From: a virus
Lineage: Duplodnaviria > Caudoviricetes
Length of the DNA: 55,508 bases
IMG/VR virus record: IMGVR_UViG_3300050343_000179
Coordinates: 1-55,508 of that record
Strand: one strand, 5' to 3'
Below the pieces are notes generated by a model. That model saw only the letters and a list, made by a program, of their open reading frames with translations, was not told where the DNA came from and searched no databases. A program made the position numbers and the translations under genes. Below are positions 1-17,712 of this stretch, in pieces; the stretch's first letter is position 1, and every line of letters begins with the position of its first letter.

Positions 1-11
1 ATCGAATGACC
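1..11. repeat. 11-nt terminal direct repeat, probable cohesive end (cosN)
   Basis: ATCGAATGACC at 1-11 is identical to 55498-55508. It lies ~150 bp upstream of terS. Across the join the minus strand reads TGTGG-GGTCATTCGAT-GCACA, a TGTG/CACA dyad. Confidence 0.8.
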
Positions 12-32
12 CCACAAATGACGCACATTTAA

Positions 33-39
33 AGGACCC
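33..39 (-). other. cosQ-like packaging termination site
   Basis: Minus strand GGGTCCT is identical to lambda cosQ and lies 21 nt before the terminal repeat, a lambda-like spacing. Confidence 0.7.
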
Positions 40-250
40 ATTTTATTTGTATTATAAATAAATAGTAAGTGTTATTTAATACTAATAACAAAATGTAAGA
101 ATAGTTTGTATTAATCTATTTTCCCGAAAAATTGCAAAAAAATATTAATAGGATCAATCCTACGAATTTTTGAAAATATATTTTAATAAAAATATTGACT
201 AAATATTTTAATATATAGGAAAGTGTCGAAAATTGATGCCGCCATGGGCC

Positions 251-650
251 GCCTGTGCGCCTGCGTGCCGCCTGTGCGCCTGCGTGCCGCTGTAGGCGCC
301 TGCGTGCCGCCTGTGCGCCTGCGTGCCGCTGTAGGCGCCTGCGTGCCGCCTGTGCGCCTGCGTGCCGCCTGTGCGCCTGCGTGCCGCCTGTGCGCCTGCG
401 TGCCGCCTGTGCGCCTGCGTGCCGCCTGTGCGCCTGCGTGCCGCCTGTGCGCCTGCGTGCCGCTGTAGGCGCCTGCGTGCCGCCTGTGCGCCTGCGTGCC
501 GCCTGTGCGCCTGCGTGCCGCCTGTGCGCCTGCGTGCCGCCTGTGCGCCTGCGTGCCGCCTGTGCGCCTGCGTGCCGCCTGTGCGCCTGCGTGCCGCCTG
601 TGCGCCTGCGTGCCGCCTGTGCGCCTGCGTGCCGCCTGTGCGCCTGCGTG
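251..650. repeat. GC-rich tandem array, 21 units of 19-20 bp
   Basis: Unit GCCTGTGCGCCTGCGTGCC. The 20-bp variant GCTGTAGGCGCCTGCGTGCC occurs at 289, 328 and 462. The last unit is partial and there are no spacers. Confidence 0.97.
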
Positions 651-661
651 TGTGTCTGAGA

Positions 662-687
662 CCCTTAAACTAAGGGCCCGCAAGTCC
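662..687 (+). repeat. bipartite motif AAAC-N8-CGCAAGTCC, copy 1
   Basis: CCCTTAAAC-TAAGGGCC-CGCAAGTCC matches three copies at 2948-3029. Confidence 0.85.
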
Positions 688-723
688 TAGCCAAAAAAAA
701 TCACCCTCTCGGGTGATCTGTGA

Positions 724-969
724 TCAATCCTGATTTTCTGGCCAGTCTGCCGGAGATGGCAGAATTTTAAGTCTTGAGTATTGACCAGCCGTGATTGTAA
801 CGCCATCAAGCATTGCACGCCTAGCAGCGTAGTGGAGAGGCTTAGGCGGTGCCATGTAGCCAGCGTAACCCTCCGGCCAGAACTGGCAGGGGTGGCCGTC
901 TTGTAACCAAGCAAAGCCCCGTCTTGGGTTGCCGTTTGGGCAGTTCGTAGCCTTTAGATAAACAAGCAT
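724..969 (-). CDS. hypothetical protein, 81 aa
   Basis: ATG start after an AT-rich spacer, co-oriented with the upstream small genes. Confidence 0.6.
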   Translation of the reverse strand: MLVYLKATNCPNGNPRRGFAWLQDGHPCQFWPEGYAGYMAPPKPLHYAARRAMLDGVTITAGQYSRLKILPSPADWPENQD

Positions 970-1008
970 GATTGAAAAATTAAATGTGATTTAAGAAAAA
1001 AGTTAAAG

Positions 1009-1716
1009 TTAAACTGATTTCACATATTTAGCGCCTGACCCGTGAGCTTGAACATATATATCCGTCTTATCCCCGTCACATAAAGAACAGGTCAGACACT
1101 GCGCTTTGCTTCCTTCTACGGTTGCAGGACATTTTTTGATTCCTGCATACTCGATATTGGAAGGAACAACGCTAAAAGTTTTCCAGCCATGCGCGCTGGC
1201 GTCCAGGTAATCTTGCATCCCGTCACAGCTAGCTTGCATGGAACCTTTCGCCCACTGCGCCCAATCTTCTCGCCATTGGTGCGTATAGGCTGTGTGACCT
1301 GCAGCTGCGCCATTCACAGCGTTAAAGATAATTGGATTAATGATCGCAGGATCGCCATAGGCTCCCCACCTAATCTTGACCTTTGACAGGTACTTTTTAC
1401 CTTGCTCAACCGTTAGATCTGTTTCGTACTTACCAGCCTTGAACGCACGCCAGACACTCAACGGAGCTTGCCCCACGTTGACATAGCAAGAGCGGGAACC
1501 GTCTTCCTGCTTCCTGTGTCCACAGTTTCCACAGATCGAAACGTCAGCCCCGATCTGAACAGCCTCAACAGGGTTTAAATCACTTCTCAGGATCCACACC
1601 TGAGCCATATTGCCGGTCTTCCTGTTGCTTGATTTCAGCGTCAAGATCACCACGTAAGGTGATCCGTCAATGGGGCTTAACCCTTGGTCAATGATAAAGC
1701 CGAGAGGTTTTGACAT
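1009..1716 (-). CDS. Cys-rich conserved phage protein (recalls GP88/DUF7227-like families), possibly metal/Fe-S binding
   Basis: 235 aa with SNRKTG, CGNC-x11-CYV, RWGAYGDP, YTHQW and a C-terminal CPA...CLTCSLC. Confidence 0.7.
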   Translation of the reverse strand: MSKPLGFIIDQGLSPIDGSPYVVILTLKSSNRKTGNMAQVWILRSDLNPVEAVQIGADVSICGNCGHRKQEDGSRSCYVNVGQAPLSVWRAFKAGKYETDLTVEQGKKYLSKVKIRWGAYGDPAIINPIIFNAVNGAAAGHTAYTHQWREDWAQWAKGSMQASCDGMQDYLDASAHGWKTFSVVPSNIEYAGIKKCPATVEGSKAQCLTCSLCDGDKTDIYVQAHGSGAKYVKSV

Positions 1717-1749
1717 TTTTTTTAGTAAGTAAGTTTTTTAAAAAAAGAA

Positions 1750-1952
1750 TTAAGAAAGATCGGAGAGAAAATGGCCGTGAATTAAAATTTTAATTTTGGC
1801 CGCCAAGATTTCGTCGGCAGGGTCAATAGAACAGGTTTCGTCTAAAAGATCTCCTAGGCGTAAAAGTTCTGGCCTAGTGAGTTTTGTAAAATTTTTAATA
1901 GTTAAGTTTTTAAAAATTTTTTGCTGAGCATGAGCAATCTTGGGTCTGACAT
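1750..1952 (-). other. frameshifted small gene (possible -1 slippage, pseudogene or sequence error)
   Basis: The ATG at 1952 gives 16 codons. The -1 frame is open to TAA at 1750, and a T-TTA-AAA heptamer precedes the 0-frame stop. Confidence 0.45.
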
Positions 1953-1993
1953 TTTTTTAGAATTGATTAATTAATTTTTTTAGGGTGAGAATC

Positions 1994-2194
1994 CTAAGGG
2001 CGCTGAGAGGCCCCTACAGCGCCTCCTGCAGCGCCTAAGACGGTTAAGGCTAGGGAAGCTTGGATGAACTGCCCTAGGCCCTTCCTAGCCTCCACAGTGT
2101 TCACTGGGAGAATCACAGCAGAAACGAGGGCAAGGTGGCACAGAATGACGCCAGTGGCTGCAGCACCAAAGCCGAAAAATTTTAAAGTTGACAT
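1994..2194 (-). CDS. small membrane protein, 66 aa
   Basis: Two hydrophobic segments; has the shared poly-A leader. Confidence 0.65.
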   Translation of the reverse strand: MSTLKFFGFGAAATGVILCHLALVSAVILPVNTVEARKGLGQFIQASLALTVLGAAGGAVGASQRP

Positions 2195-2229
2195 TTTTTT
2201 AAAAAATAGAGTTTGCAGAAAAAATTAAA

Positions 2230-2415
2230 TTAAGCGAAGGACCAGCGACGGGCCGTGGTAGGGCTGACGCCGTAACGCTGTCCAATTGCCTTCCATGTAG
2301 CACCATTGCGCTTTAAGCGGTTAATGCGTGTTGAGCGTGATTCTGTGACGTAGAGAAGAATCACTAGGGGGAGCGTGATCAGTAGAAGGAGAGAAGCGAA
2401 AAAAAGAGAAGTCAT
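2230..2415 (-). CDS. membrane-anchored helix-turn-helix protein, 61 aa
   Basis: N-terminal TM segment, then GATWKAIGQRYGVSPTTARRW, an HTH pattern. Confidence 0.75.
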   Translation of the reverse strand: MTSLFFASLLLLITLPLVILLYVTESRSTRINRLKRNGATWKAIGQRYGVSPTTARRWSFA

Positions 2416-2613
2416 TTGAAAAGAGATTTTTTAAACGTGAGTGTTTCGCTCACTCCCCAACAATAACAGATTTTTTTGCAGTGGAGTCTAAGACCATCCT
2501 TATAGGGTCAGATATAAAATTGTCCATACCCCACAACGCAGTCGTGGTCTGAGAATTTGCGGGAACCTAGAAAATGCCGAACGGCAAAATAAAAAACGAA
2601 ATGTTCGCCATGA

Positions 2614-2675
2614 ACATTTTTGCATTCGGATCGCAAAGTGTTCAGCGTGGACATTTTTGCATTCGGATCGCAAAG
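2614..2675. repeat. two 25-bp direct repeats with hairpin potential
   Basis: ACATTTTTGCATTCGGATCGCAAAG at 2614-2638 and 2651-2675. Confidence 0.9.
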
Positions 2676-2878
2676 CGTTCGATAATGAGAATCATTCTCA
2701 TGCATCCGAGTTGGTGTAAACAATTGCGCGAAAAAATGCGATTAGCAGCGAATAGAATTGCTGTGCAATTTTTTCTAGTTGTTTCTCGTAAACGAGAAAT
2801 ATCAAATTAATTGTTTATATTTAGTGATTTTGATTGTGTTACTTAGTGGCGTAATTTAAATCGTTAAATGTTACAAAT

Positions 2879-2908
2879 AGTACAGATGTACTATAGTACA
2901 TGTGTATC
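2879..2908. promoter_or_regulatory. cyanobacterial LexA (SOS) box plus a degenerate second box
   Basis: AGTACAGATGTACT (2879-2892) fits the cyanobacterial consensus AGTACWNWTGTACT. AGTACATGTGTATC follows at 2895-2908. Confidence 0.65.
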
Positions 2909-2947
2909 AGTAAAAAAGTATTTTCAAAATCGTGTGTGTGAAAAAGC

Positions 2948-3029
2948 CCCTTAAACCGAACCCTCGCAAGTCCCCCACCTAAAACCGACCCCTCGCAAGT
3001 CCTCGCTTAAACCCAAACCCCGCAAGTCC
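2948..3029 (+). repeat. three tandem copies of bipartite motif AAAC-N8-CGCAAGTCC
   Basis: Copies at 2948-2973, 2978-3002 and 3005-3029. Confidence 0.9.
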
Positions 3030-3033
3030 CCGG

Positions 3034-3804
3034 TCAAAATCCAGTTGCAATTGCTTTGCCCAGTGCTTCGCCAAACCTTCTGTTTAGATTTTTATTAGCA
3101 GCTGTCTTTCCAACTTCTTGGAACTTAAATACAGAAGGCAGCACAGGCGGCCTATTTGAAATACTGAAAAGCAAAGCCTCATTGTTTTCAAAAGCTTTGG
3201 GAGTGTTGAAGTAAATTCCAGGCTGCAACCCCCCATACTTCATTGATTCAGAAAGCTGAGTGGAAATCATCCTGTACTTAGACCTGCGACCAGACTTGAT
3301 GATTTGCTTCACAGAAAGGTCGTTAGAGCTTCTGGCTGCCCTGTAAGCTTGCTGGTCAGAAAGAATGTCTGAATACATAGAGGGCCTAACATTGCCGTAT
3401 TTGTTGGTCTTCAGGAAATCAGACTGAGTAGGAATAGCGAACTGGCCAGCCCTGAGTACACCTTTGGCTCGCAAGGATTTCTGGAATCGGGTTGCGTATG
3501 CGTTTCCACCCTTAATTACAGGCAAAAGGTAATCAGCCGGAGCATTGCCTTTAGCACCATCATCACTAATCTCGAGCCTTACCGAAAGGTCTTTTTTTGT
3601 GCTGTACTTCTTTATTTTTACACTATTAAGAGTGAAGGGTACAGGATTATTAAAAACCTTCTTCATCTCCTCTTTTTCAGCATCTCTTACATCCTTGGCA
3701 ATAGCGTTAAGAGCCAAAGACGTAGCAAAAGGCACCTGGACAAGCTTTAGTGCGTCCAGGCGCTTAATAAGCGGATTTATATCAAGTGAAACAGTGCCAG
3801 CCAT
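3034..3804 (-). CDS. putative tail completion/neck protein (lambda gpZ-like)
   Basis: Basic 256-aa protein. QVPFATSLALN...VFNNPVPFTLNS is typical of this family in GpA-terminase phages. Confidence 0.55.
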   Translation of the reverse strand: MAGTVSLDINPLIKRLDALKLVQVPFATSLALNAIAKDVRDAEKEEMKKVFNNPVPFTLNSVKIKKYSTKKDLSVRLEISDDGAKGNAPADYLLPVIKGGNAYATRFQKSLRAKGVLRAGQFAIPTQSDFLKTNKYGNVRPSMYSDILSDQQAYRAARSSNDLSVKQIIKSGRRSKYRMISTQLSESMKYGGLQPGIYFNTPKAFENNEALLFSISNRPPVLPSVFKFQEVGKTAANKNLNRRFGEALGKAIATGF

Positions 3805-3813
3805 GCAACAAGG

Positions 3814-4050
3814 CTAGCAGTCGTGAATTGGCCCAGGTGCTCCCATTGCTTCAGCCTCTAGCTGTTGGATGTCCATGAAAGTGTCAGCCGCTTTTTTCCT
3901 GATAGCAGCTCGCAGCTCATTGGCCTTCTTTTCAACGAGGTGCATACTGCTACAAAAACCAGTAAGGCAAATCGAATCCTCGCATACGCGAACGTTCAAC
4001 CCAAGCCCGTCCTCAGTGTTGGCAATTTCAATGCTCATGCTTCTCTCCAT
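3814..4050 (-). CDS. hypothetical protein
   Basis: Co-oriented, tightly packed ORF. True start may be the ATG at 4038. Confidence 0.65.
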   Translation of the reverse strand: MERSMSIEIANTEDGLGLNVRVCEDSICLTGFCSSMHLVEKKANELRAAIRKKAADTFMDIQQLEAEAMGAPGPIHDC

Positions 4051-5362: not shown

Positions 5363-5620
5363 TTAATTGGGTTTTTCCCCATCTGGGGCATGAAATAAGC
5401 GTTCCAGCATCAAAGAGTCTGGATCTGTGTAGTTTTCATCGTCAGGGGTGTTCCTGTCGACAAAGGCCATTGCGACCGGATCTTCAATAGATCCCGCCAT
5501 GATGACCTGATCAAGATCAACGTCCTTAAAGGCAAGAAGGGATATGTTGTTGGATCTGACAAGAATCCCGATAGCGAATCGCTCCCAAAATCTGGTGTAC
5601 CAGCGCATTAGAGAGCCCAT
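5363..5620 (-). CDS. hypothetical protein, 85 aa
   Basis: TGATG coupling to the upstream gene. Confidence 0.7.
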   Translation of the reverse strand: MGSLMRWYTRFWERFAIGILVRSNNISLLAFKDVDLDQVIMAGSIEDPVAMAFVDRNTPDDENYTDPDSLMLERLFHAPDGEKPN

Positions 5621-6201
5621 CAGTTCATAGCAAAAGCGTAACTATCAAGGCTGCTGGAACTAGCCAGGCGAACGATGATCCCATCGGTTGGAAGCTCTGA
5701 CCTGCCAAAGCATCCAGCCTTCCAACGCCGATGACACCACTCAATCTCGGAGAAGCTTGAGCAACAAACAGCGGTTGCAACGTCAAAGCCAAGGAAGGCA
5801 AGGCGATCTAAAGTAAGGAATCGATCTCCATCAGCACCGACAAGCGTGTCAGCGATGAAATGATCGTCGCCAGAGAGCGTGCCTTCAACGTGGATCGTCA
5901 AGGGCTGCTGTAAGCGCTTGGGGAGAGCTGCACGCCCTACTTGAAGAAGATCATCTCCTGAGAGGCCCCTACAAGCCTCCAGGCGGCCATAAAAGTAATA
6001 GGCGGAGCATCTAGTGCCTGTGAAGGCTTCGGACACGCACAGAGCCTCTTGGAGGCTGCTAGCGATCAAACGGCTCTCGGCGGAATACCTGTCCAAAAAC
6101 TCTGGACTTGGCGAAGGAAGCCGAATCTCCGCTGGTGGACTTGAAGGCATTGTTAAACGCAATCTTGTTTGCATTGCAAGAGTAGCTGCTAAACGCACCA
6201 T
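5620..6201 (-). CDS. degenerate NAD-dependent DNA ligase adenylation-domain protein
   Basis: LPTDGIIVR (motif IV), IHVEGTL (motif III-like) and GRLEACRGLSGDDL. Motif I KxDG is replaced by AFTG. No OB, HhH or BRCT domains. Confidence 0.65.
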   Translation of the reverse strand: MVRLAATLAMQTRLRLTMPSSPPAEIRLPSPSPEFLDRYSAESRLIASSLQEALCVSEAFTGTRCSAYYFYGRLEACRGLSGDDLLQVGRAALPKRLQQPLTIHVEGTLSGDDHFIADTLVGADGDRFLTLDRLAFLGFDVATAVCCSSFSEIEWCHRRWKAGCFGRSELPTDGIIVRLASSSSLDSYAFAMN

Positions 6202-6448: not shown

Positions 6449-6696
6449 GCGGGTCGCTGAGATCCCTTGCGGCGCAGTAACTGTATGCAAACGGGTCGGT
6501 CGTTGACCCGGCCAAATCCCTTGGTATGACTGGGATGGGTCAATAATAATAAATGTATCACTAAATATATATATATATATATATATATACTCTTACTTAC
6601 ACACACATACTTACTCGTGTGGCATAAAAAATGACCCAACCGACCCGCCCTTGCGCCGCAACGGATCTCGCGGGTCAGGGTGTGGGTCGTGGGTCA
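6449..6696. other. putative replication origin
   Basis: AT-rich core with (AT)12 at 6565-6589, nested inverted arms and ~9 GGGTC/GACCC pentamers, just downstream of the primase-helicase. Confidence 0.55.
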
Positions 6697-6831: not shown

Positions 6832-9492
6832 CTAATCCGTGTCGATTATTGCCGTTAGTGGAATCACTGTAGCTCGTGATTGCTTACTTCCGCAGAATCT
6901 CACCATCGCCGGAGACTTGGTAGCGCCCAAAACCCGCTTCAGTGCTTGCTTATGAGCCCCTCCAGACCATGCCGTTTCATCCAAAAGCCGCTCCAAATTC
7001 GTATTTGAGTTCGCAATCATCATCGAGCCGGACATAAGTCTGATTCCATATCTGCCTAACACTTTTTCGCAAGTTTCATCCGAACCTTCAATTGTTCCCA
7101 TTTTGGGACCGCAAAGACTCTCAACGAGATTCATGATCGTGAACCTTCTGCCGCCCTCCACGGTGATCATTGATTCAAGGATCCGCGCAAGGCATTGATC
7201 TTCATCAGCGTCACGTTCATCGCGCCGCTGTGATGTCCAGTCAATGCCAGCGCAAAACTCAGCAGCCTCTACATCAGACAGCTCACGATCACTGCCTGGG
7301 AGCAAGCTGAACGCACCTGCCAAGAGTGTGCCGTGCTGATCACCAAAACGCTGGCCGTGCTCGACAGCTAGGGCTGCTGCAAACTTCCGCGCATTGGCCC
7401 TAATAGTCGGCACCCGCGCCAGTGTTCGTGCCACCAGGCTGCGACCTGTTTCGGGAGTACAGAGCTGGGCGATCTGTGCCTCAAGCGGAAGCCAGTCCCC
7501 CTCGCCCTTCTGCAAGGTAAGGACACAGAATCGATCACGATCAGCGCCTTGAACAAGGGAAGCGTTGATTGATGAAACGCAGAACATGCTGCGGATTTCG
7601 TATTGATTAGCTGCACCACCACCAGCCGAGCCTTTGATGATTTTGCCGCCTTCAGATGATGCGATCCTTGCCATTGCCAGAACGTTGTCACGATTTTGTT
7701 TCTCGCGGGAGTCGTTCTGCTCAAATTCATCGAACAGAACAGGAATTGCATCAGACCGGAGTGCAGCGCGAAGGCCGGGTTCAGTGGTGCCACCTGTGGC
7801 TGATTGATAAATGCCGCCTAGTAAAGGCTTAAGGAAACGACTGAGGATTGTTGTCTTACCCGTGCCCTTGCCTCCGGTGACCCAGATATGTGAGCGCCAC
7901 TCAAGTGCGCCACAGATAGGAGCAAGAGCAACCCAGCCAGCAAGCAGGAACGCATAGGAAGGTGATTCCCAGGAGAAAGATTTTGCAAGGTTAAAAAGCT
8001 GAACAGAAACATCGTCTTCTAACGGGATTTCACTAGGCCCATCAAGGGGTTTGGCGTGTTCGTAAAAGTAGTAGCTCGATATTCCGTCTGATACTTTTTG
8101 CTCGCGATTATCAACTATCATTCTCATGCCAAGGTGAAAGATAACGCGATTAGCATCCACCCAAGCACCCCGGCCTCTAATACGATCAGGATCAAATACA
8201 CCTTTCTTGTGTGATTCTTGCATTAGCCATTCGGTAGCAAGATCCCAGTCAAGTTTGTCGTTTACTGTGAAGTTACGTTGCCAGAACTCTAAGGAGCTGG
8301 TTAGTGAGATTAGGTGCAGTTTGGTGTGTGAAGATATTGTCAGTTCAATTGCTTGTGAGCTTGCTCTAGGCATGTAGTAATGCTTGCCATGTTCATAACC
8401 AAGGAACTGAAAAGGTATTACTGCATGATGTTCTTCTGGTGCTTCGTTTGGCTCTTCGGCATCAACATTTTGGGGTAATTCCCAGCCGTTTGCTATTGCA
8501 GTGTTGATTAGTTTGCTGATTGACGCCCTGATTGGCGCATCACCAATTGAGAGAATTTTCTTGGCTGGCTCCCATGTGCCGGGTGATTGCCAGTCAGCTT
8601 CCAGAACGATGTCCTGTGCAAGGGACTGTCCGAAATGGTGGGTTAGGGCTGCGAGGCAGGCAAAGCATGTGGGGTATGTTCCTTGACCTGCTTCAGTGCG
8701 GAGCGGGATGTAATCACGGAGGATTTCGACAGCAAGTGTGCGCTGCTCTGCGGGTGGGAGTTTAGAAAACCAGTGGTGAGACGGTTCTGCTGGGCGGGTG
8801 CCACGTTGAAAAATCGTTGGAGCAGCAGCGCCGATCTCGTCTGGGGTGAATGTTTCAGTTCTGGTCGAGGCGATAACCGTGCGTTCGCCAGTGCTGGGGT
8901 GGATGCCACCGGGCAGGCGCATGACACGGGATGCGTTGGAGATGGCCTTGTCTGGCTTGGAGTCAGGCGCAACGATCTCGATTGCGGTTGCGATCCGGCG
9001 CTGTAGGTCAGAGAAATCTTGAATGTCAGGCTCTTGGCCTGGGGTGAAAAGCCAGTAATGGTGCAGGGATTTGCCGCCGGTCCAGACCGAGACTGTTGGC
9101 TCCGGGAGGCCAGCCATTGCAGGCAGTGCTGCTTGAGCTTCGCGGTCGAGATTGCCGTCGCACTCTGCAAAGCAGGCGATTGCGTGCTCGATGTGGGCAT
9201 TGGATGCGCCCCAGGCTTTGATCTCACCAGCCCGGTTGATGTGCTCCGGCTTGGTCCCCCATACGGCAGGCTGGTCTGAGGGTGGATTGACGACGAAGCC
9301 AAGGCTGCTGCCTGAGTTACGAGCGAGGATGCGTTCGATTTTGTTGCGCGGTATGTCCTCGGCGTCGGCCTTGATGTGGATGCAAGGCCGCGACGGATCC
9401 GAGGGATAAACAGCGAAAACTATGGGGCCGGTGCTGCGACCGATGGCTTCAAGGAAGTCTTCGGTGATTGACCAGTCGATAAGGGATTTCAT
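6832..9492 (-). CDS. primase-helicase (RepB-like primase, PriCT-2-like linker, P-loop helicase)
   Basis: FAECD, TGGKSLHHYW and SRVMRLPG primase motifs; Walker A GGKGTGKT and Walker B VLFDEFE. Confidence 0.88.
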   Translation of the reverse strand: MKSLIDWSITEDFLEAIGRSTGPIVFAVYPSDPSRPCIHIKADAEDIPRNKIERILARNSGSSLGFVVNPPSDQPAVWGTKPEHINRAGEIKAWGASNAHIEHAIACFAECDGNLDREAQAALPAMAGLPEPTVSVWTGGKSLHHYWLFTPGQEPDIQDFSDLQRRIATAIEIVAPDSKPDKAISNASRVMRLPGGIHPSTGERTVIASTRTETFTPDEIGAAAPTIFQRGTRPAEPSHHWFSKLPPAEQRTLAVEILRDYIPLRTEAGQGTYPTCFACLAALTHHFGQSLAQDIVLEADWQSPGTWEPAKKILSIGDAPIRASISKLINTAIANGWELPQNVDAEEPNEAPEEHHAVIPFQFLGYEHGKHYYMPRASSQAIELTISSHTKLHLISLTSSLEFWQRNFTVNDKLDWDLATEWLMQESHKKGVFDPDRIRGRGAWVDANRVIFHLGMRMIVDNREQKVSDGISSYYFYEHAKPLDGPSEIPLEDDVSVQLFNLAKSFSWESPSYAFLLAGWVALAPICGALEWRSHIWVTGGKGTGKTTILSRFLKPLLGGIYQSATGGTTEPGLRAALRSDAIPVLFDEFEQNDSREKQNRDNVLAMARIASSEGGKIIKGSAGGGAANQYEIRSMFCVSSINASLVQGADRDRFCVLTLQKGEGDWLPLEAQIAQLCTPETGRSLVARTLARVPTIRANARKFAAALAVEHGQRFGDQHGTLLAGAFSLLPGSDRELSDVEAAEFCAGIDWTSQRRDERDADEDQCLARILESMITVEGGRRFTIMNLVESLCGPKMGTIEGSDETCEKVLGRYGIRLMSGSMMIANSNTNLERLLDETAWSGGAHKQALKRVLGATKSPAMVRFCGSKQSRATVIPLTAIIDTD

Positions 9493-9592
9493 AAATCGCC
9501 ACAGTGGCGTTGCTATTAGAGCAGGTTTAGAGAGTAGCGCAACTATATGCGCTGTTATTTGCTACAGCATGTGTACACAGGTCGAGGCAGGG

Positions 9593-9621
9593 TTGCGTTT
9601 TTGAGTCGAAGAGCGTATGCT
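9593..9621 (+). promoter_or_regulatory. sigma70-type promoter for the plus-strand operon
   Basis: TTGCGT-17 nt-TATGCT in the divergent intergenic gap. Confidence 0.5.
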
Positions 9622-9686
9622 TTCGCAGAGCCGTATTTCCCTAAGCTCTGCAACTGTTATGGCGTCACGCTCCATGCTGCGTTTGT

Positions 9687-10019
9687 ATGCAACCACCTAA
9701 ATTAAACAAAATTCTCGCTTTAACGCAAAGCTCAAACGAAAACGAGTCGGATGCTGCTTGCAGAATGCTTTGCAAAGCTCTTGTCTCGATGGGCTACAAC
9801 TTTTCTGAAACTAAAGATTCGCATGAGCCGGTGGACCCTTACGCTTATGACTGGCCTGACCCGCCTAAAGAGCCTGCCCGTGATTTTAAAAAAATAACCA
9901 ATAAGTACGAGACTTATTGCAAGTGCTGCAAGAAATATATACCTGTAGGTACGAGAGTCTTCTGGATTCCTGGCGAAGGAGTTATACATATTGAATGTAG
10001 AGAGGCTTTTGATCGATGA
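9687..10019 (+). CDS. hypothetical protein, DUF2786-like N-terminus plus Cys/His C-terminus
   Basis: KLNKILALTQSSNENESDAA; CKCC...HIEC. Confidence 0.6.
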   Translation: MQPPKLNKILALTQSSNENESDAACRMLCKALVSMGYNFSETKDSHEPVDPYAYDWPDPPKEPARDFKKITNKYETYCKCCKKYIPVGTRVFWIPGEGVIHIECREAFDR

Positions 10020-11422
10020 CCTTTCTCCGCCCCCGCCAAGTCCAGGCGATTAATGACATCAGGGTTGCGTACCGGTCTGGGTATCGGGCTCCGATTCTGT
10101 GTGCTGCTACTGGCTTCGGCAAGACCCATACCAGTGCTGCGATTATCCAGTCTGCGCTTGATAAGGGCAAGACTGTTTGGTTCCTTGCCCACCTTCGTGA
10201 AATTTTAAACGACACATCTAGCCGCCTCAAACAGGCTGGCATCTCGTTTGGAGAGATCGCTGCTGGAAAGCCATTGGAGTATTACAAGCGAGTTCAACTT
10301 GTGAGTGTTCAAACAGCAGTCCGCAGGACAGATTTACCTCAACCGGATCTTGTTATTGTTGACGAATGTCATTTAGCAGCAGCTAAAACATACAAGGTCG
10401 TTCTTGGCCGCGCTGGCAATCCGGCACTTCTTGGGCTTACCGGCACCCCATGCCGGTTGGACGGCAAAGGGCTTGACGAAATGTTCGACACGATTGTTCC
10501 TACTTGCTCTACTGATGATTTGATTGACGAAGGGTTATTAGCACCAATTGTATATTTTGCACCTGAACGCCCAGACCTAAGCAAAGTTAAAACATTTGCA
10601 GGCGACTACAAGGTAAATGAGTTGGCCCATGTGATGGACAACCCAGACCTGACTGGCCGTGCGGTTGAACAGTATATGTTGCACTGTGACGGGGCAAAAG
10701 CTGTTGTGTTCTGCACGGGGATTGATCACGCCGAGAATGTAGCCGAAACATTTCGTTTGGCTGGTTACAAGGCTGTTGCAATTTCTGGCGAAACAAAACC
10801 TCCTGAAAGGGAAGCTGCATTAACAGGACTTAGGAATGGAGATTTGCAAGTCGTTTGCAACGCAAAGCTTTGGTCGGCAGGGGTCGACATACCTCAACTG
10901 GAGTGCATTATTCTTCTAAGGCCGACCAAAAGTTTAACTTTTTACTTGCAAGCAATTGGCAGGGGACTGCGAACTTCTCCAGGTAAAAATAATTTAGTTG
11001 TTCTTGACCACTCTGGATCTATTTTTCAGTTCGGCCCTCCTGGGATGGCTAGAAAATGGAGCCTAAGAGGTCGTGACAAGCGTGAACAGGCAGGTCCTGT
11101 CAAGCAATGCCCTGCCTGTTTTTGTTGCCATAAGCCTGCCCCTCAATGCCCAGAATGCGGTTTTATCTACCCCGTTGATGACAAGAAAGACTTAAACCAG
11201 AGCGATGATGATCTTGTTGAGCTTACGTCTGACGAAATGCTGGCAATGGAACGTCGTATCAATGCAAAAAAGTCTAAAGAAGAAAGCCTTCGCCGCCAAA
11301 AGGAAGTTGGTCAAGCTAGGACTTTAGATGCTCTCGTCCTATTAGGCATAAGTAGAGGTTACAGATTTCCAGTACAATGGGCGCGAAAGATTTTAAATTC
11401 TCGTGCAATCAAGCGAAAGTAA
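10016..11422 (+). CDS. superfamily II DNA helicase with C-terminal Zn finger
   Basis: ATGFGKT, DECH, LTGTP, QAIGRGLR and CPAC...CPECG. Confidence 0.95.
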   Translation: MTFLRPRQVQAINDIRVAYRSGYRAPILCAATGFGKTHTSAAIIQSALDKGKTVWFLAHLREILNDTSSRLKQAGISFGEIAAGKPLEYYKRVQLVSVQTAVRRTDLPQPDLVIVDECHLAAAKTYKVVLGRAGNPALLGLTGTPCRLDGKGLDEMFDTIVPTCSTDDLIDEGLLAPIVYFAPERPDLSKVKTFAGDYKVNELAHVMDNPDLTGRAVEQYMLHCDGAKAVVFCTGIDHAENVAETFRLAGYKAVAISGETKPPEREAALTGLRNGDLQVVCNAKLWSAGVDIPQLECIILLRPTKSLTFYLQAIGRGLRTSPGKNNLVVLDHSGSIFQFGPPGMARKWSLRGRDKREQAGPVKQCPACFCCHKPAPQCPECGFIYPVDDKKDLNQSDDDLVELTSDEMLAMERRINAKKSKEESLRRQKEVGQARTLDALVLLGISRGYRFPVQWARKILNSRAIKRK

Positions 11423-11756
11423 GATCCAGCAAGAGATCAGACTGGCGTGTAGTCGCGGCTCGACAAGGCTGTGGAGAAATAACAGCGGCAGTTTGCCTAA
11501 CCCTAAAACCGGTACTTATGTGCAGTTTGGCGTCGGTAGTCCCGGCGGAAGTGACCTGATTGGCTACCGGAAGGTGACGATTACGCCAGAAATGGTGGGC
11601 ACTGAAATCGCAGTATTTGCTGCTGTGGAGGTAAAGGCCGCCAAGGGGCGTGCGACTGAACAGCAGAAGGCTTTTATTGAGCACATCCGAAACGCAGGCG
11701 GTCTTGCAGGGGTGGCTAGATCAGTTGACGAAGCGAAATCTATACTGTTAAACTAA
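11403..11756 (+). CDS. VRR-NUC domain nuclease
   Basis: SESKIQ, GSDLIG, AVEVK, TEQQ..F and GGLAGVARSV. Confidence 0.92.
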   Translation: MQSSESKIQQEIRLACSRGSTRLWRNNSGSLPNPKTGTYVQFGVGSPGGSDLIGYRKVTITPEMVGTEIAVFAAVEVKAAKGRATEQQKAFIEHIRNAGGLAGVARSVDEAKSILLN

Positions 11757-11827
11757 TGAACGATACAATTGCCCTTGCGCTTTTCTCTGGCTTTTGTATT
11801 GGCCTTATAGCCTCTAACCTTTTATGA
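11756..11827 (+). CDS. 23-aa hydrophobic peptide (not in ORF track)
   Basis: MNDTIALALFSGFCIGLIASNLL; coupled on both sides (TAATG, ATGA). Confidence 0.5.
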   Translation: MNDTIALALFSGFCIGLIASNLL

Positions 11828-11925
11828 CACCCGCATTCATTCAGTATTTAAAAAATCAGTACGCCAAGGCTATGCGAATCGCAAAGCAAAAAGCTAAGGC
11901 AAAAGAATCGAAATCAGAGGATTGA
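11824..11925 (+). CDS. 33-aa basic peptide (not in ORF track)
   Basis: MTPAFIQYLKNQYAKAMRIAKQKAKAKESKSED; coupled on both sides (ATGA, TGATG). Confidence 0.5.
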   Translation: MTPAFIQYLKNQYAKAMRIAKQKAKAKESKSED

Positions 11926-12107
11926 TGAACAGTCTTTATTTTTGCGTGGCCTGTGAGTCTCCAGGTCAGGACCGGCAGTATGTCGAGGTACTGGCCCGGT
12001 CTGAGGAGCAGGCAATACACAAGGCATCTCGTATTCATCGCAACCGGAAGAGCTATCGGCTATTGGTTCCTGAATCAGTTGTCAGGTTTCAGGAGCGCAG
12101 CTTTTGA
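11925..12107 (+). CDS. hypothetical protein
   Basis: TGATG-coupled ATG at 11925. Confidence 0.6.
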   Translation: MNSLYFCVACESPGQDRQYVEVLARSEEQAIHKASRIHRNRKSYRLLVPESVVRFQERSF

Positions 12108-12355
12108 TCTGCCCGAATTGCGGTGCCTCTGGGAGGGGCACTAAAAAGGTTCTCAGTACCCGGCATTCACATGGCGGCACTGTCACTCGTCAGATCAAAT
12201 GTAGATCGTGCAATTATTTGTATTTTACGTCTGAGTTTGTCATTGACCGGATGTTGGTGAACTGTCGTGGTGGCCATTATCATGCCAGCTCGACGATGAT
12301 TGATGCAGTGTCTGCAACTCTTAGGGAGCATGGACTGGAGCAGGATGATGCGTGA
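12104..12355 (+). CDS. NrdR-like zinc-ribbon protein
   Basis: CPNCG...KVLSTR...TRQIKCRSC..FTSE; no ATP cone. Confidence 0.75.
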   Translation: MICPNCGASGRGTKKVLSTRHSHGGTVTRQIKCRSCNYLYFTSEFVIDRMLVNCRGGHYHASSTMIDAVSATLREHGLEQDDA

Positions 12356-12542
12356 TGCTGGTATTGCCGATTCGCCTGGTAGAGCTGAAGCGTGCAAGAT
12401 GCAGCGATTTGAGGCAACCTTTCGCGAAAAAAGCGGATGGGAGCACGTTGAAATTATTGATGCAATGAGCTATCACGGTGCATTGAAGAAACTTAAGGGT
12501 AGGTCCAAGACACTATTCTCTTTGTGCGTAATTAATGACTAA
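12300..12542 (+). CDS. hypothetical protein (start probably the ATG of MDWSR)
   Basis: In-operon ORF containing MDWSRMMRDAGIADSPGR. Confidence 0.6.
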   Translation: MMQCLQLLGSMDWSRMMRDAGIADSPGRAEACKMQRFEATFREKSGWEHVEIIDAMSYHGALKKLKGRSKTLFSLCVIND

Positions 12543-12616
12543 TGCTGAGGCAAAGCGTCTGATTGCTGAATCAGACAAACGATTACTTGAAATTTATCAC
12601 TGGAGACTGAATCCTC

Positions 12617-13300
12617 ATGAGCATGAAACTATTGATCATCGATACGGAAACGACTGGCTTAAGTCCAGCCGACAGCACCGTGATCGAACTGGGAGCTGTC
12701 CTGTTTGATGTTGAGCTGCGATCTGTTATTTGTCAGGTCTCGTTTCTGCTGCCGACACTGACAAACGAGGCCGAGTTCGTGAATCGGATTCAGCCTGCGT
12801 TGACCATGAAAGCGCCTGATCTGACGAGCCCAATGGCGGCGTCATTTTGGGCGATGGTTGCTGAGGCTGACTATGCCATCGCACATAACTCTGCATTCGA
12901 CCGGCAGTGGTTCGGTGGTTCCGGCTGCTTGCCTTCGATGCCGCTGCCATGGATCTGTTCAATGGACGAAATCTCATGGCCGCTGAATAGCAAGCGGGGT
13001 CGCAGCTCTGTGATGTCGCTGTGCGTCGATTACGGCGTTCCCGTTTGGCAGGCCCACCGTGCTCTCACTGACTGCATCTATCTGGCTGAGGTCATGAAAC
13101 GCGAGCCTCAGCTAGAACATCTGATCGAGAATGCCTTGCTGCCGAGGCATGTCTACGTCAGCAATCTTGGCTACGAGCAGCGCCAGCACTGCAAAGACGC
13201 TGGGTTCACTTGGAACAATCTGGTTCCGAAGATGTGGGCCAAAAAAATGACAGAGCATGAAGCTGCGGCACTAGATTTCTCTGTCTCTATTGCCGATTAG
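12617..13300 (+). CDS. DEDDh 3'-5' exonuclease (DnaQ-like)
   Basis: IDTETTG, AHNSAFD and HRALTD motifs. Confidence 0.93.
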   Translation: MSMKLLIIDTETTGLSPADSTVIELGAVLFDVELRSVICQVSFLLPTLTNEAEFVNRIQPALTMKAPDLTSPMAASFWAMVAEADYAIAHNSAFDRQWFGGSGCLPSMPLPWICSMDEISWPLNSKRGRSSVMSLCVDYGVPVWQAHRALTDCIYLAEVMKREPQLEHLIENALLPRHVYVSNLGYEQRQHCKDAGFTWNNLVPKMWAKKMTEHEAAALDFSVSIAD

Positions 13301-13347
13301 TCGAAACAGTGATACCATTCGTCTTGCAAACATCGTTGCGTTTTTGA

Positions 13348-13542
13348 ATGACAAGCAAAGCTGTACCCGTAGCGGTCAAGGTGCGAGCCTTAGCTGCAAC
13401 CGCTCAAGACGGTAGTTGGTGCGTAATTGGTTATCCAGGCGTCACCGATGAAGCCCTTGTTGAAGACGCTCGACTTTTGGCTGGCGATGGTGAAATTCGT
13501 CAGCACTGGATTGAAATGGAACTTGAATTACCAAACCAATGA
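13348..13542 (+). CDS. hypothetical protein, 64 aa
   Basis: ATGA overlap with the next gene. Confidence 0.65.
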   Translation: MTSKAVPVAVKVRALAATAQDGSWCVIGYPGVTDEALVEDARLLAGDGEIRQHWIEMELELPNQ

Positions 13543-14369
13543 ATTACCACGATCATCCAGCTTTATCTGCCAGCAAGCTCAAGAAATTCGCTTGCGGCAC
13601 AGCAGTTGATTATTGGGCTGCCTACGAAGATCCAGACCGTATGCCAATGGTGCCCTCTGATGCGATGCGTCAGGGCAGCTTGGTTGACTGTTTGATCACA
13701 GAGCCTGAAAAGTTTAGCCGTAAATATGTTGTCGCTCCTAGAGCGGACCGTCGCACAAAAGCAGGCAAGGAAATCTGGGCAGAGGCCCAAGAACTTGCTC
13801 GCTCCAAGTGCGCGGACCTGATCACCGAGGAGTGGCACCACACTGCACAGCTGATCGTCAGCAAGCTCAAAAACGATCCAATCGCTTCTGAGTTCCTGCA
13901 GGGTTCAGGGCAGGTGCCTCATTTCTGGCACGACCCAGAGAACGATGTTGAGTGCCGTTACTTGCCTGACTTGGAGCAGCCAGAGGACGGTTTGCTTGTG
14001 GATCTGAAGAAAGCCCGGAGTGCGAACCCACGCGATTTTGCTAGGCAGTCATTTGCACTTGGGTACGATCTCCAGGTAAGTCACTACGCAGAGGGGTTTC
14101 GAGACCGCCACGGTACTTATCCAAAGCAAATTGTGCTGCTGGCTTACGAGTGGGCGTTCCCTTTCAACTACTCGGTAAATATCGTTAGCGACGAGCTGCT
14201 GGAGGTTGGTCGTCAACGCCGCAATGAGGCTATTGAAGGCATCAAAGCCTGTCGTGGCACGAATGAATGGCCGTCTTGGGGCATCAACACGATGGAAGCT
14301 CCGCGTTGGTATCAAGTCGAAGATCCAGCCAATGACACTGATGTTGCTGATTTGTTGGAGGGAGTCTGA
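13539..14369 (+). CDS. RecE/exonuclease VIII-like PD-(D/E)XK nuclease
   Basis: YH..PALSASKLK, DRRTKAGK, CRYLPD, VDLK and YDLQ..HY. Confidence 0.88.
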   Translation: MNYHDHPALSASKLKKFACGTAVDYWAAYEDPDRMPMVPSDAMRQGSLVDCLITEPEKFSRKYVVAPRADRRTKAGKEIWAEAQELARSKCADLITEEWHHTAQLIVSKLKNDPIASEFLQGSGQVPHFWHDPENDVECRYLPDLEQPEDGLLVDLKKARSANPRDFARQSFALGYDLQVSHYAEGFRDRHGTYPKQIVLLAYEWAFPFNYSVNIVSDELLEVGRQRRNEAIEGIKACRGTNEWPSWGINTMEAPRWYQVEDPANDTDVADLLEGV

Positions 14370-14926
14370 TGCAATTCGTAGGAGACCTGATGAACGAGCC
14401 TTGGCTAAAAGCTTTCATGTTCCCGGCATCTGGGCGCATGACACTGACCGTCAAAGGCGTTCGCAAAGCTGAGGTTGCGTTTGACGATCAAGAGCCAAAA
14501 CTCCAGACGATCATGTCGTTTCAGGAAATTAATTCTGAGCTGACCTTGGCCAAAATCAATGCCATTCCATTGATCAAGCTTTTGGGCAATGATGTTGCGT
14601 TATGGACTGGCAAGCGTGTGACTTTCTACGCGACTAATCAGGTCATGCCTCACCCGCTTCGCAAGGACGAACCTTGCATTCGCGTCTTTGGAAGTCCTGA
14701 AATTGACGAAGAGATCAGCTGCGAGTGGACACCGCCCAAGCGCCGCAAGATTGTGCAAAAGCTGCACCCTACAGGTATGTTCAAGCCTGCAGTAAAAAAG
14801 ATCGAGGAAGCTGACCCATCACAGCTTGATTCGATTCGTCAGCGCATTTCGGAGCTGAGAGCGTCCAATAATCTTTCGGAGGAGGAGTACAATCAGCTTA
14901 TTGCTAAAATCCAAACCATGAGTTAA
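14369..14926 (+). CDS. putative ssDNA-binding/recombination partner
   Basis: Coupled to the RecE-like gene; LTLAKIN...G.D...WTGKRVTFY pattern common in phage recombination modules. Confidence 0.5.
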   Translation: MQFVGDLMNEPWLKAFMFPASGRMTLTVKGVRKAEVAFDDQEPKLQTIMSFQEINSELTLAKINAIPLIKLLGNDVALWTGKRVTFYATNQVMPHPLRKDEPCIRVFGSPEIDEEISCEWTPPKRRKIVQKLHPTGMFKPAVKKIEEADPSQLDSIRQRISELRASNNLSEEEYNQLIAKIQTMS

Positions 14927-14953
14927 AGTATTTCTCGCAAGCCAAGACCGTTT

Positions 14954-15229
14954 ATGTCTTCTATCAAGGTTGTCAGTGCTGCTGATATTCCAGCACGCAC
15001 GAGCCGACACAGCAAAACAAGCCCATTGCGAGAAAAGATTGCTGCTCTAACGCCTGAAACCAGTCTTTTCGTTCTTTATTACTGCGAAGAGCTTGACGAG
15101 GGCTACAAGGCCAGCACCATCGCTCAGATCGCCGGTCGCATGACCAAGGAATCCAGTCAGTACAAGTATTCAGTTCAGTCCGAGTCAGCCAAAAACGGCT
15201 GCTACATCATCTGTAAAGCAAAATCATGA
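14954..15229 (+). CDS. hypothetical protein, 91 aa
   Basis: In-operon ORF with ATGA overlap. Confidence 0.7.
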   Translation: MSSIKVVSAADIPARTSRHSKTSPLREKIAALTPETSLFVLYYCEELDEGYKASTIAQIAGRMTKESSQYKYSVQSESAKNGCYIICKAKS

Positions 15230-15594
15230 CCGATTCATTTTCAGTAAACGGAGCCTTGTTCCCTCAGACCGCTGAGGACTTGAAAGCTCGGTTGAAAGAC
15301 AAGTTTAACCCTCAGACCCAGTACCCAAGCTGTGAGGGCGTCGTGAACATTCCTGCCACTGTGGCTTACCAGCTAGCTGAGTACATCATGCAAGGCAAGC
15401 CTCTTGGTGAGCGCAATGAAATTCCTCTTGCTATCAGCGGATGGAAGAGGCAATCATCAAGCGGTAAGACTTACATCAGCCTGAGTTTTAAGCCTCACTA
15501 CAAGTACGAGAAAAACGCTGAAGGTGTTGTTAATGACGCTGCCCAGTCTGTGGCCAAGGCCACTGACGGGAACGTTGTAGACGACTTTTTCTAA
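15226..15594 (+). CDS. single-stranded DNA-binding protein-like
   Basis: SGWKRQSSSGKTYISLSF and an acidic/aromatic tail DDFF. Confidence 0.7.
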   Translation: MTDSFSVNGALFPQTAEDLKARLKDKFNPQTQYPSCEGVVNIPATVAYQLAEYIMQGKPLGERNEIPLAISGWKRQSSSGKTYISLSFKPHYKYEKNAEGVVNDAAQSVAKATDGNVVDDFF

Positions 15595-15604
15595 ACCCTC
15601 TACC

Positions 15605-15632
15605 GGGGCAGAATCATCCTGCCCCTTATTTT
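15605..15632 (+). terminator. intrinsic terminator
   Basis: GGGGCAG-7 nt-CTGCCCC followed by TTATTTT. Confidence 0.7.
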
Positions 15633-15635
15633 AAA

Positions 15636-16025
15636 ATGGCAATTTACAACAGCAATTCACTTGACAGGTCAATCCTTTCTACAGAGTTGCCGCATCTGAG
15701 CTGCAATGAGCTTCGTAAGCTTTACCATGAGCTTATTGATTGCATCAATGAAATCACGGCCTCTTTGGCGGAGGTTTCAAGCTTTGAAGAGAAGCACGGC
15801 TATGCGCCCGACACTGAATGGTGTTACAGAGCAAAAAAAAAGCTGCGAATCTCGACGCAATTTGCAGCCAAGATTGAAGCGATGAACAAGCCGCTGCCAA
15901 AAAATTACAATCAGTTGTACCAAGATCACTTTCTCCGCATTCTTTTGGAGGAACTTGGCCCTGCTGCACTTAAAAAAATCCAAGCCGAAGCTTCGGTAAT
16001 CGCTCGATCAGAATCCAATGAATGA
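15636..16025 (+). CDS. hypothetical helical protein, 129 aa
   Basis: In-operon ORF. Confidence 0.7.
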   Translation: MAIYNSNSLDRSILSTELPHLSCNELRKLYHELIDCINEITASLAEVSSFEEKHGYAPDTEWCYRAKKKLRISTQFAAKIEAMNKPLPKNYNQLYQDHFLRILLEELGPAALKKIQAEASVIARSESNE

Positions 16026-16182
16026 AAAGCAACTTGAAGTCAGTATTGAGTCGGTCAAAGGTCTTTTAATTGACGGCTATAACAATTACGAAAAAAGCCT
16101 TCAACGCCGCCAAGGTGATTCCCGGTATTGGGATGGCTACATTCGCGGTATTCAACACGTTCTGGAAATGCACAATCAATGA
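16018..16182 (+). CDS. hypothetical protein, 54 aa (not in ORF track)
   Basis: MNEKQLEVS...YWDGYIRGIQHVLEMHNQ; overlaps both neighbours by a few nt. Confidence 0.7.
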   Translation: MNEKQLEVSIESVKGLLIDGYNNYEKSLQRRQGDSRYWDGYIRGIQHVLEMHNQ

Positions 16183-16346
16183 AAATTAAATTCGGCCTTT
16201 TTACTCGCTTGCAATTTGCCTTATTGGCTGTCATTAGTCCTCAACGGCTAGTCACAGCAATCACAGCTGGGTTCCTATCAGCTGTTGACTCGTTAGAAGA
16301 TGACGAGCTAAGAATGCTTGTAGAGGAAATTAACGATGCAGATTGA
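16179..16346 (+). CDS. hypothetical protein, 55 aa
   Basis: ATGA-coupled start MKIKFGLF within the listed 16128 ORF. Confidence 0.6.
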   Translation: MKIKFGLFTRLQFALLAVISPQRLVTAITAGFLSAVDSLEDDELRMLVEEINDAD

Positions 16347-17354: not shown

Positions 17355-17468
17355 ATTAGGAGGGGACGCCACCGGCTCTCGCGCCTGCGTGGCTTGGTTC
17401 AGGTGATCCCCATGCGCCTCAGGACAAGCCAACCCTGAGATTGGTTTGAAAAAAATCATATCATGCGG

Positions 17469-17669: not shown

Positions 17670-17712
17670 CTCAAACCAATCTCATTTTTAACGTTTTTAC
17701 GGCTTTATTTTA

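Follow-up and report, generated by a model that had tools for sequence, protein, structure and literature searches.

Among temperate phages of model bacteria, a few are known to place genes under the control of host LexA. In coliphage 186, the tum operon with its LexA-repressed p95 forms a small LexA-controlled unit near the right, cos-proximal end of the genome. Lambdoid morons are accessory units closed by their own terminators, which are present, absent or swapped among close relatives between conserved blocks. The tectivirus GIL01 relies on LexA boxes of its host rather than on a CI repressor (PMC4551915, PMC6182141). Here we analyzed a 55,508-bp complete virus record of IMG/VR, IMGVR_UViG_3300050343_000179 (the window, meaning this whole stretch of DNA), and in particular its positions 1–3030, which carry two abutting LexA-type boxes and a cassette of small genes. 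We tentatively read this segment, with a likelihood slightly short of even, as an accessory operon that is gated by host LexA (SOS) and situated in the genome's variable, cos-proximal right end, as judged by sequence comparison.

The locus is similar to GIL01, which has dinBox sites at P1 together with gp7 and gp6, in that more than one site of the host LexA type lies in a control region without an encoded CI-type repressor (PMC4551915, PMC6182141). It differs in belonging to a cos siphovirus with a probable cyanobacterial host and in its abutting arrays of up to 11 boxes, and no counterpart of gp7 or gp6 and no lysogeny function were found. The likeness to coliphage 186 lies in predicted boxes at a similar place; however, that phage is temperate and its Tum antirepressor acts on CI, whereas no integrase, CI- or LexA-like repressor or Tum-like protein is present among the 40 open reading frames (ORFs) scanned here, a set from which the small ORFs of the structural block are left out. 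The cassette is self-contained and exchangeable in the manner of a moron, but it is flanked by conserved motif copies and putatively gated by host-type SOS boxes. LexA-gated phage genes are a known kind; what is new is that the boxes form abutting arrays, that lysogeny genes are apparently lacking, that the phages are marine cyanophages and that the boxes are tied to GP88/DUF7227 proteins.

The predicted LexA-box control region and its cassette

The features of the control region and the cassette are listed below in the reading direction of the cassette; related genomes and loci are cited by handles such as G001 and L160.

2949–3031, minus strand: three tandem copies of the motif GGACTTGCRRGGGKTCGGTTTAAG (site A), the same motif being at the same place in relatives
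2878–2909, no strand: two abutting 16-bp LexA-type boxes, TAGTACAGATGTACTA and a second one (2894–2909) with 2 mismatches
2685–2701, no strand: palindrome ATGAGAATCATTCTCAT, shared with G001 and L160, with four copies in L078; population breakpoint at 2706
2599–2672, no strand: two 37-bp direct repeats, each with an inverted repeat (repeat family D7); L160 has one copy
2415–2230, minus strand: 61-amino-acid (aa) protein, N-terminal hydrophobic helix and C-terminal helix-turn-helix (HTH)
2194–1994, minus strand: 66-aa protein, two hydrophobic stretches (judged by eye); L160 homologue 78% identical
1956–1750, minus strand: small ORF, 16 aa from its ATG at 1952; adjoining frame open for 68 codons
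1716–1009, minus strand: 235-aa Cys-rich protein, phrog_2554 (E 4.4e-58)
969–724, minus strand: 81-aa ORF, no family match; L160 homologue 84% identical
690–719 (719–698 plus U8), minus strand: intrinsic terminator closing the cassette, 9-bp stem and GAGA loop
661–692, minus strand: single motif copy, then CACACAC (site B); repeat families D2 and D8

The initial annotation had reported an AT-rich block, a tandem array, co-oriented genes with shared leaders, hairpin repeats, a LexA box and a bracketing motif, and all of these were found where it had placed them. The segment is indeed unlike the rest of the genome, as it had proposed: the motif, the LexA box and the leader AAAAAAATGTC occur nowhere else in the 55.5 kb, the exact leader being present three times in the whole window, each time at a start codon (1716, 1952 and 2194). 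The motif also brackets the cassette, with three copies at site A and one at site B. The count of about five small genes stands as five minus-strand ORFs, but the third is a 16-codon ORF (in 1902–1970) plus a 68-codon open frame. One additional base is present at 1927/1928 in contigs from three of the four marine runs, so that this record probably holds a frameshift in a gene of about 65 aa at 1956–1750, or else a sequencing error in an A/T run.

The 14-mer AGTACAGATGTACT at 2879–2892 is the sole match to RGTACNNNDGTWCB in the 55.5 kb; being palindromic, it was counted on both strands, against an expectation of 0.32 matches, and a count of two was reached in 7 of 100 shuffles. The window box fits both RGTACNNNDGTWCB and AGTACWNWTGTACT, which PMC3091678 gives as consensus of the cyanobacterial LexA box. 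Table 1 of PMC3091678 gives the very same 14-mer as predicted recA box of Prochlorococcus AS9601; on its other strand, the 14-mer is one base off the recA box of Synechococcus WH7803, and the AGTACATTTGTAYT boxes of the relatives resemble the predicted lexA boxes of marine Synechococcus.

The arrangement recurs in the IMG/VR relatives, which share the order of motif GGACTTGCRAGGGGTCGGTTT (2–4 copies), 1–11 abutting LexA-type boxes, palindrome, cassette, terminator, GC-rich array, AT tract and cos. Within the control region, the motif copies are followed by a T-run with ACACACGG, the boxes, AT-rich DNA often with the palindrome TGAGAATSATTCTCA, and GC-rich tandem arrays, which differ between genomes. 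Taking as a LexA-type box any 16-mer with no more than 2 mismatches to TAGTACANNTGTACTA, we found that nine of 13 oriented syntenic stretches have 1–7 boxes in the 420 bp following the motif, and none elsewhere; a tenth stretch, L072, ends too early, and its continuation L160 has four boxes. After near-duplicates were merged, eight lineages bear boxes (the window, G003, G001, G004, G005, the G002 group, L078 and L160). The longest series is seen in G003 (L103 4532–4834), where Tandem Repeats Finder gave 11 tandem 16-bp units CTATAGTACTAATGAA, LexA-like with a GAAC right half, and then at least five repeats of a 26-bp unit, in the midst of which the contig stops.

L160 corresponds to the window in each part, with three motif copies, four boxes, palindrome, terminator, a degenerate motif copy, CAGGCGCACN × 22, AT tract and cos block. 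Its cassette has the same 61-, 66- and 81-aa genes (78%–90% identity), and a DUF7178 gene replaces the frameshifted ORF and the 235-aa gene. The distant relative L003 is co-linear, with a 256-aa homologue, four near-identical motif copies, AT-rich DNA, a DUF7227 gene, terS and terL. The combination of motif, array and LexA boxes, for which the initial annotation had advised a comparison with relatives, is kept together, and the genes inside it are exchangeable; the predicted link to host SOS is backed by this conservation of the box-bearing region. Compared across relatives, the cassette is a self-contained unit with its own terminator, exchangeable between them. The end next to cos is thus a hotspot at which cassettes flanked by repeats are exchanged, and its conserved core is the noncoding control region with the host-type SOS boxes ahead of the operon. 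Further copies of the palindrome TGAGAATSATTCTCA or of its half-site TTGATTCTCA are seen, with four following the box in L078 and others immediately upstream of the cosQ-like block in L069, G002 and G004; its 7-1-7 shape may recall Fur-family boxes.

The anatomy, its conservation, the cos site and the gene association detailed below are directly supported by these sequences, and they enable us to propose a putative model. After the last gene of the upstream operon and three copies of the lineage motif, two abutting operators of the cyanobacterial LexA type would lie inside an AT-rich, palindrome-rich control region. They would govern a five-ORF accessory cassette with a strong terminator, comprising a putative membrane-anchored HTH protein, a predicted protein with two transmembrane segments, the frameshifted ORF, the DUF7227-type Cys-rich protein and the 81-aa protein; one motif copy, the GC-rich array of ~10-bp period, the AT tract and the putative cosQ/cosN come next. 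Host LexA on the tandem boxes would keep the cassette silent in undamaged cells. RecA-driven LexA cleavage, upon ultraviolet (UV) or other DNA damage or possibly upon phage replication itself, would release it. The recurrent cargo of such LexA-box operons would be a GP88/DUF7227-type protein, probably with a DNA-related role. In this model we infer LexA binding, promoter direction, timing and the roles of motif and arrays.

The terminator folds at −13.1 kcal/mol (z −3.67), a value reached by none of 200 shuffles, and the RNA fold of the 37-bp repeats is no better than shuffles (z −1.05). The 61-aa protein matches HTH_23 with E 2.4e-5 at 24.5 bits, just under the cut-off of 24.6. Its homologues lie 3' of box arrays in L160/L126 (90% identity), L122 (60%) and L130 (46%), and S-CBS3 gp41 is 47% identical; a search for related loci with the 61-aa protein found only one relative. 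Its layout recalls phi29 p16.7, a membrane-bound replication organizer that has a membrane helix at its N-terminus and binds DNA through a homeodomain-like C-terminal part, but the 61-aa ORF is half the size and the likeness is one of layout, not of sequence comparison. The 66-aa protein has no family match in Pfam or PHROGs, and no cassette ORF matches a host-shutoff or takeover family in Pfam, PHROGs or NCBIfam.

LexA-type boxes and GP88/DUF7227 proteins

A gene-blind census of IMG/VR for two abutting GTAC-N4-GTAC boxes joined by TATA yielded 41 loci, with up to 11 boxes each, compared with a chance expectation that we put well below one. Clustering at 90% identity reduces the loci to 36, and blastn sorts them into 18 groups. 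The commonest ORF cluster within 2 kb of the boxes is of the GP88 family, present in 13 of the 41 loci and in L101. In all 14 cases, the GP88-like gene lies 0.45–1.4 kb from the boxes and reads away from them; Pfam GP88 was confirmed in seven of the seven tested and in L101. Two box-bearing loci, L123 and L156, carry the 235-aa protein type of the window. As a background check, 54 loci (470,524 bp) fetched via the 235-aa protein alone were found to hold 12 boxes against ~1.5 expected, and in five of them a box lies 0.36–1.7 kb upstream of the 235-aa homologue. In L144 (1–8235), from the largest box-bearing group, the boxes are followed by small ORFs, the GP88 gene and ribonucleotide reductase genes, one of which is interrupted by an HNH endonuclease.

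The 235-aa protein scores 22.3 bits on DUF7227 (PF23872), below the gathering cut-off of 27 and over the C-terminal 42 residues only. Comparing its family with the DUF7227 proteins of L003, L106 and L069, which score 249–270 bits on PF23872, hhalign gave a probability of 96.2% (E 2.6e-9, 199 columns). Judged by this profile alignment, the 235-aa protein is homologous to DUF7227, and in L003, G002 and L069 DUF7227 proteins are found at the same spot before cos. Its structure model (predicted local distance difference test, pLDDT, 87) has no clear fold match. Radical-SAM chains top both fold lists without significance (Foldseek E ≥ 0.15, VIA Z ≤ 3.7), and the invariant Cys spacing of the family is CX2CX11C as against CX3CX2C in the radical-SAM motif. 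The open-access literature searched contained nothing relevant on DUF7227, GP88 or phrog_2554.

The cos site, its flanking DNA and the genome

The sequences between the cassette and the genome end, the gene across the motif, and the other parts of the genome are as follows.

1–11 and again 55498–55508, no strand: cohesive-end sequence ATCGAATGACC (cosN region), inside the conserved GGGTnAyTTCGA block
34–39, minus strand: GGGTCC(TT), cosQ-like element ~25 nt inside the end, in 7 of 7 aligned relatives with sequence there
41–240, no strand: AT-rich tract containing three A/T repeats of ~24 nt; an AT tract occupies the same place in L160
229–202, minus strand: promoter-like site within the AT tract
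248–650, no strand: GC-rich tandem array, period 19, 21.1 copies (as assembled in the record), 95% matches
3804–3034, minus strand: 256-aa protein, last gene of the upstream operon, phrog_1924 'minor tail protein' (E 9.5e-47)
9492–3034, minus strand, and 9687–18191, plus strand: DNA-metabolism blocks (helicases, primase, exonucleases, thymidylate synthase, deoxynucleoside monophosphate kinase)
9492–9687: divergent region between the minus- and plus-strand blocks
20713–19553, minus strand: endolysin
54806–52947, minus strand: terL (GpA_ATPase 1.7e-84, GpA_nuclease 3.8e-94)
55350–54793, minus strand: terS, on the other side of cos from 1–3030

IMG/VR classes the record as one without end repeats; its two ends share 11 nt and no longer terminal repeat. 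We joined the ends at this overlap and compared them with the DNA upstream of terS in seven relatives with contiguous sequence. The joined ends fall within a conserved block (GGGTCCT, 17–20 nt, GG(G)TnAyTTCGA, ..., CTAG) located ~150–200 bp upstream of terS in all seven. The GGGTCC(TT) element is also present in L160 and after S-CBS3 gp46, and two other assemblies terminate at the block, namely G003 (its left end, at the contig start) and the L160 contig. G003 is very close to the window (TerL 98%, TerS 96% and portal 99.6% identical). Given the 11-nt terminal duplication, the conserved block upstream of terS and the GpA-family TerL, the record ends are assigned as a genuine lambda-type cos. 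The site shares with lambda cos (cosQ-cosN-cosB, GpA/Nu1) a GpA-family terminase, the head-module order terS, terL, W-like, portal and protease/capsid, a short cohesive end, and a conserved element ~25 nt upstream of the cut. It differs in a predicted overhang of 11 nt rather than 12, and in the arrays and AT tract upstream, which lambda lacks. On the same evidence, positions 1–3030 are the cos-proximal end distal to terS, 'right' in lambda terms, as the initial annotation had placed them. In lambda, the cosQ end is packaged last and ejected first; by analogy, 1–3030 would be the end packaged last.

In S-CBS3 (L113 5683–5740), the last gene gp46 is followed at once by a GGGTCCCTT ... GGGTGATGTTGAG block resembling the cos block of this lineage; gp46 is annotated as 'minor tail protein' and is weakly similar to the 256-aa protein of the window. 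In L160 (5075–5131), immediately ahead of the cos cut region, the cosQ-like GGGTCC lies between two additional LexA-like boxes. In S-LBS1 (L112 5236–5642), the terminal region upstream of terS contains numerous CCTAACCT/AGGTTAGG repeats, with which the 26-bp arrays of G003, G004 and G005 (L103, L104 and L107) share a GGTTAGG-like core.

The GC content is 22.5% in positions 1–200 and ~78% in the array. The 19-bp period noted initially was confirmed, but each unit really consists of two CAGGCG sub-repeats, with an underlying period of ~9.5 bp. At the array position L160 has its CAGGCGCACN units and other relatives carry different arrays.

For the motif core, a 12-mer with at most 1 mismatch, the genome has six matches against 1.5 expected, which none of 100 shuffles reaches, and the motif is confined to this genome region. 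It always points towards terS, usually directly after the 256-aa gene, and after other genes in G003, G004 and G005. A terminator or antiterminator RNA was dropped as an identity, since the three-copy stretch folds no better than shuffles on either strand (z −1.1 and +0.4). A host-derived repeat was likewise rejected: among 185,579 species genomes scanned, only four single-copy matches were found, in contigs of metagenome-assembled genomes with unrelated context, one of them an ordinary terminator hairpin. No multi-copy motif occurs in the cultured cyanosiphoviruses S-LBS1, S-CBS3 and S-H1. An IMG/VR scan for two motif copies gave 36 loci, 12 of which carry the 256-aa homologue; about half of the 36 were set aside as presumably collagen-like coding repeats with copies spaced in multiples of 15 bp, and the two of these that were read, L065 and L071, have GGACCTGCAGGG runs that would encode Gly-Pro-Ala-Gly. 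The motif is read as a putative protein-binding DNA site, perhaps an operon boundary or a recombination site.

In the VIA comparison, the model of the 256-aa protein matches 9mu2_P, a chain of the SaPI1 neck structure (Z 9.5, root-mean-square deviation 3.2, 107 aligned), whereas a sequence profile search of the PDB and Foldseek gave no match. On this model the protein looks like a virion neck or minor-tail protein, which makes it an unlikely binder of the motif. Its gene ends the DNA-metabolism operon, far from the structural genes and just across cos from terS. From this position, late transcription may start upstream of cos, by analogy with lambda.

The minus-strand order after terL is W-like head-tail joining protein, portal, protease-capsid fusion, tape-measure and tail genes. 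Among cultured phages, Synechococcus siphoviruses come closest, with 63% identity to S-CBS3 in the endolysin, 45% identity to S-LBS1 in TerL, and S-H1 as the best match of the primase. Sequencing runs containing this stretch are marine and seawater viromes, with no RNA run listed among them. The virus is a lambda-type cos siphovirus and, by these similarities and the marine source of the runs, probably infects marine picocyanobacteria. Contigs from four marine runs, each of a different study, tile 640–4000 in overlapping pieces of 90%–100% identity, no piece spanning all of it; they argue against a chimeric assembly, for which the initial annotation had asked to check. Loose ends of the population contigs at 2706, 2953 and 3002 fit recombination at the repeats of the control region. 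Positions 1–3100 had no blastn match among cultured phages, an Rfam scan of 1–4000 at E ≤ 1 had no match, and a tRNA scan found none. Elsewhere, 111-bp repeats at 27617–28590 lie inside a 1660-aa tail-region ORF (26080–31062) and are presumably repeated protein domains, and a perfect (AT)12.5 run (6565–6589) lies between the genes at 5620–6201 and 6832–9492.

The proposed LexA gating against other explanations

Several observations weigh against LexA gating of the cassette. The only promoter-like site over the boxes in the window and G001 reads the opposite way, towards the 256-aa gene, and no confident sigma-70-like promoter directed at the cassette overlaps the boxes. In G002 and L084 the promoter-like hexamers over the boxes read towards terS, so both directions occur among relatives. 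Between the boxes and the first start codon lie 460 bp with several hairpins. Two lineages, the L003/L087 group and L069, keep the motif without boxes, and arrays of 4–11 abutting boxes exceed the need of an operator. The 235-aa homologues of Rey, jiawei and S2B, phages of Mycobacterium and Caulobacter, have no host-type LexA box within 0.9–2.5 kb upstream of the gene; thus SOS control does not go with this protein family in general. Furthermore, hhalign did not link the 235-aa family with GP88 (PF17338; probability below 1%, thin alignments), and the sole link is a lead from the ESM Atlas, in which members of neighbouring clusters are in some cases GP88 and in others DUF7227. Given the promoter directions, the 460-bp gap, the arrays of 4–11 boxes and the box-less homologues, we kept two rivals, in which the boxes are decoys or are read by a phage-encoded protein.

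As decoys, an unlikely role in our estimate, the tandem boxes would be multiplied by genome replication and titrate LexA, switching on the host SOS regulon for the benefit of the phage. Such a role would fit a copy number of 1–11 that varies among close relatives (two in the window and 11 in G003, with TerL 98% identical) and boxes that abut at a 16–17-bp period with no clear promoter geometry. Repeated decoy sites are an established principle (PMC3322331), and the open-access literature searched contains no described example of phage LexA decoys or cyanophage LexA sites. However, the boxes are consistently upstream of a co-directional operon, with 14 of 14 GP88-like genes reading away as from operators, and one or two boxes, as in the window and L078, would titrate little. 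Titration might also be combined with gating, with a similarly low probability: in apparently lytic marine cyanophages, expandable arrays of host LexA sites (2–11 per genome), making hundreds to thousands of sites per infected cell after replication, would titrate LexA, turn on the host SOS regulon and make the phage operon, with its GP88/DUF7227 enzyme and membrane-anchored HTH protein, read the level of free LexA. If true, titration and readout would link infection to the daily course of UV damage in surface seawater. An equally unlikely alternative is that the boxes serve as operators for a regulator, encoded by the phage, whose binding site is that of LexA or imitates it, with the putative membrane-anchored HTH protein of 61 aa as one candidate. 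Phage operators are often tandem, and a homologous HTH gene lies downstream of the box arrays in the window, L160/L126, L122 and L130; yet such a homologue is found in only three of the 41 census loci within the sequence examined, the boxes agree at every base with those predicted for recA and lexA of the host, and the 40 scanned ORFs include no LexA-like or CI-like protein.

Other explanations start from the repeats rather than the boxes. That the segment is a replication origin or a plasmid-like maintenance region, its motif copies and/or arrays being iterons beside AT-rich unwinding tracts, is quite unlikely. Direct repeats of 24–31 bp are followed by AT-rich DNA at both sites, the absence of a significant motif RNA fold favours a DNA site, and the arrays of the window and L160 are conserved in place, but no initiator or partition gene was identified nearby, the adjacent 256-aa gene resembles one for a virion neck protein, and array sequences differ between phages with otherwise nearly identical genes. 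The same divergence bears on a packaging accessory region, in which arrays, AT tract and motif would assist terminase in locating or cutting the downstream cos when a packaging run ends: G003 has wholly different arrays despite TerS and TerL of 96% and 98% identity, and the three-copy motif site is 3 kb from cos. We regard this explanation, too, as rather improbable, although arrays, AT tract and motif are always found within ~0.7 kb upstream of the cosQ-like block, and the CCTAACCT arrays upstream of terS in S-LBS1, the nearest cultured relative by TerL, share the GGTTAGG core with the 26-bp arrays of G003, G004 and G005. The initial annotation had favoured a first-injected early module controlling entry or host takeover in the style of T5 first-step transfer, which now appears very unlikely. 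The segment has its own regulatory signals and lies at the end that lambda ejects first, and in the T7-like S2B and jiawei the 235-aa homologue is among the genes next to the terminal repeat. The T5 first-step-transfer region is bounded by repeats; here no long terminal repeat exists, only the 11 shared nt. No evidence for an entry or takeover function emerged; no takeover gene was matched in Pfam, PHROGs or NCBIfam, the genes are swappable, and LexA-type operators predict silence upon entry into a healthy, undamaged cell. The lysis/dormancy switch also suggested is left without a known partner, no integrase or repressor being among the 40 scanned ORFs.

In summary, the cos site of this lineage is now fixed, and the segment beside it is tentatively read as a LexA-gated accessory operon. 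Sites of the type used in such control occur here in abutting arrays across uncultured marine phage genomes that show no lysogeny genes, and they are tied to GP88/DUF7227, a protein superfamily widespread in phages. If LexA binds these arrays, they would provide a handle on the role of GP88/DUF7227 proteins, and cyanophages would read or influence the DNA-damage state of the host cell, with implications for how the diel cycle and UV affect the production of viruses in the ocean.

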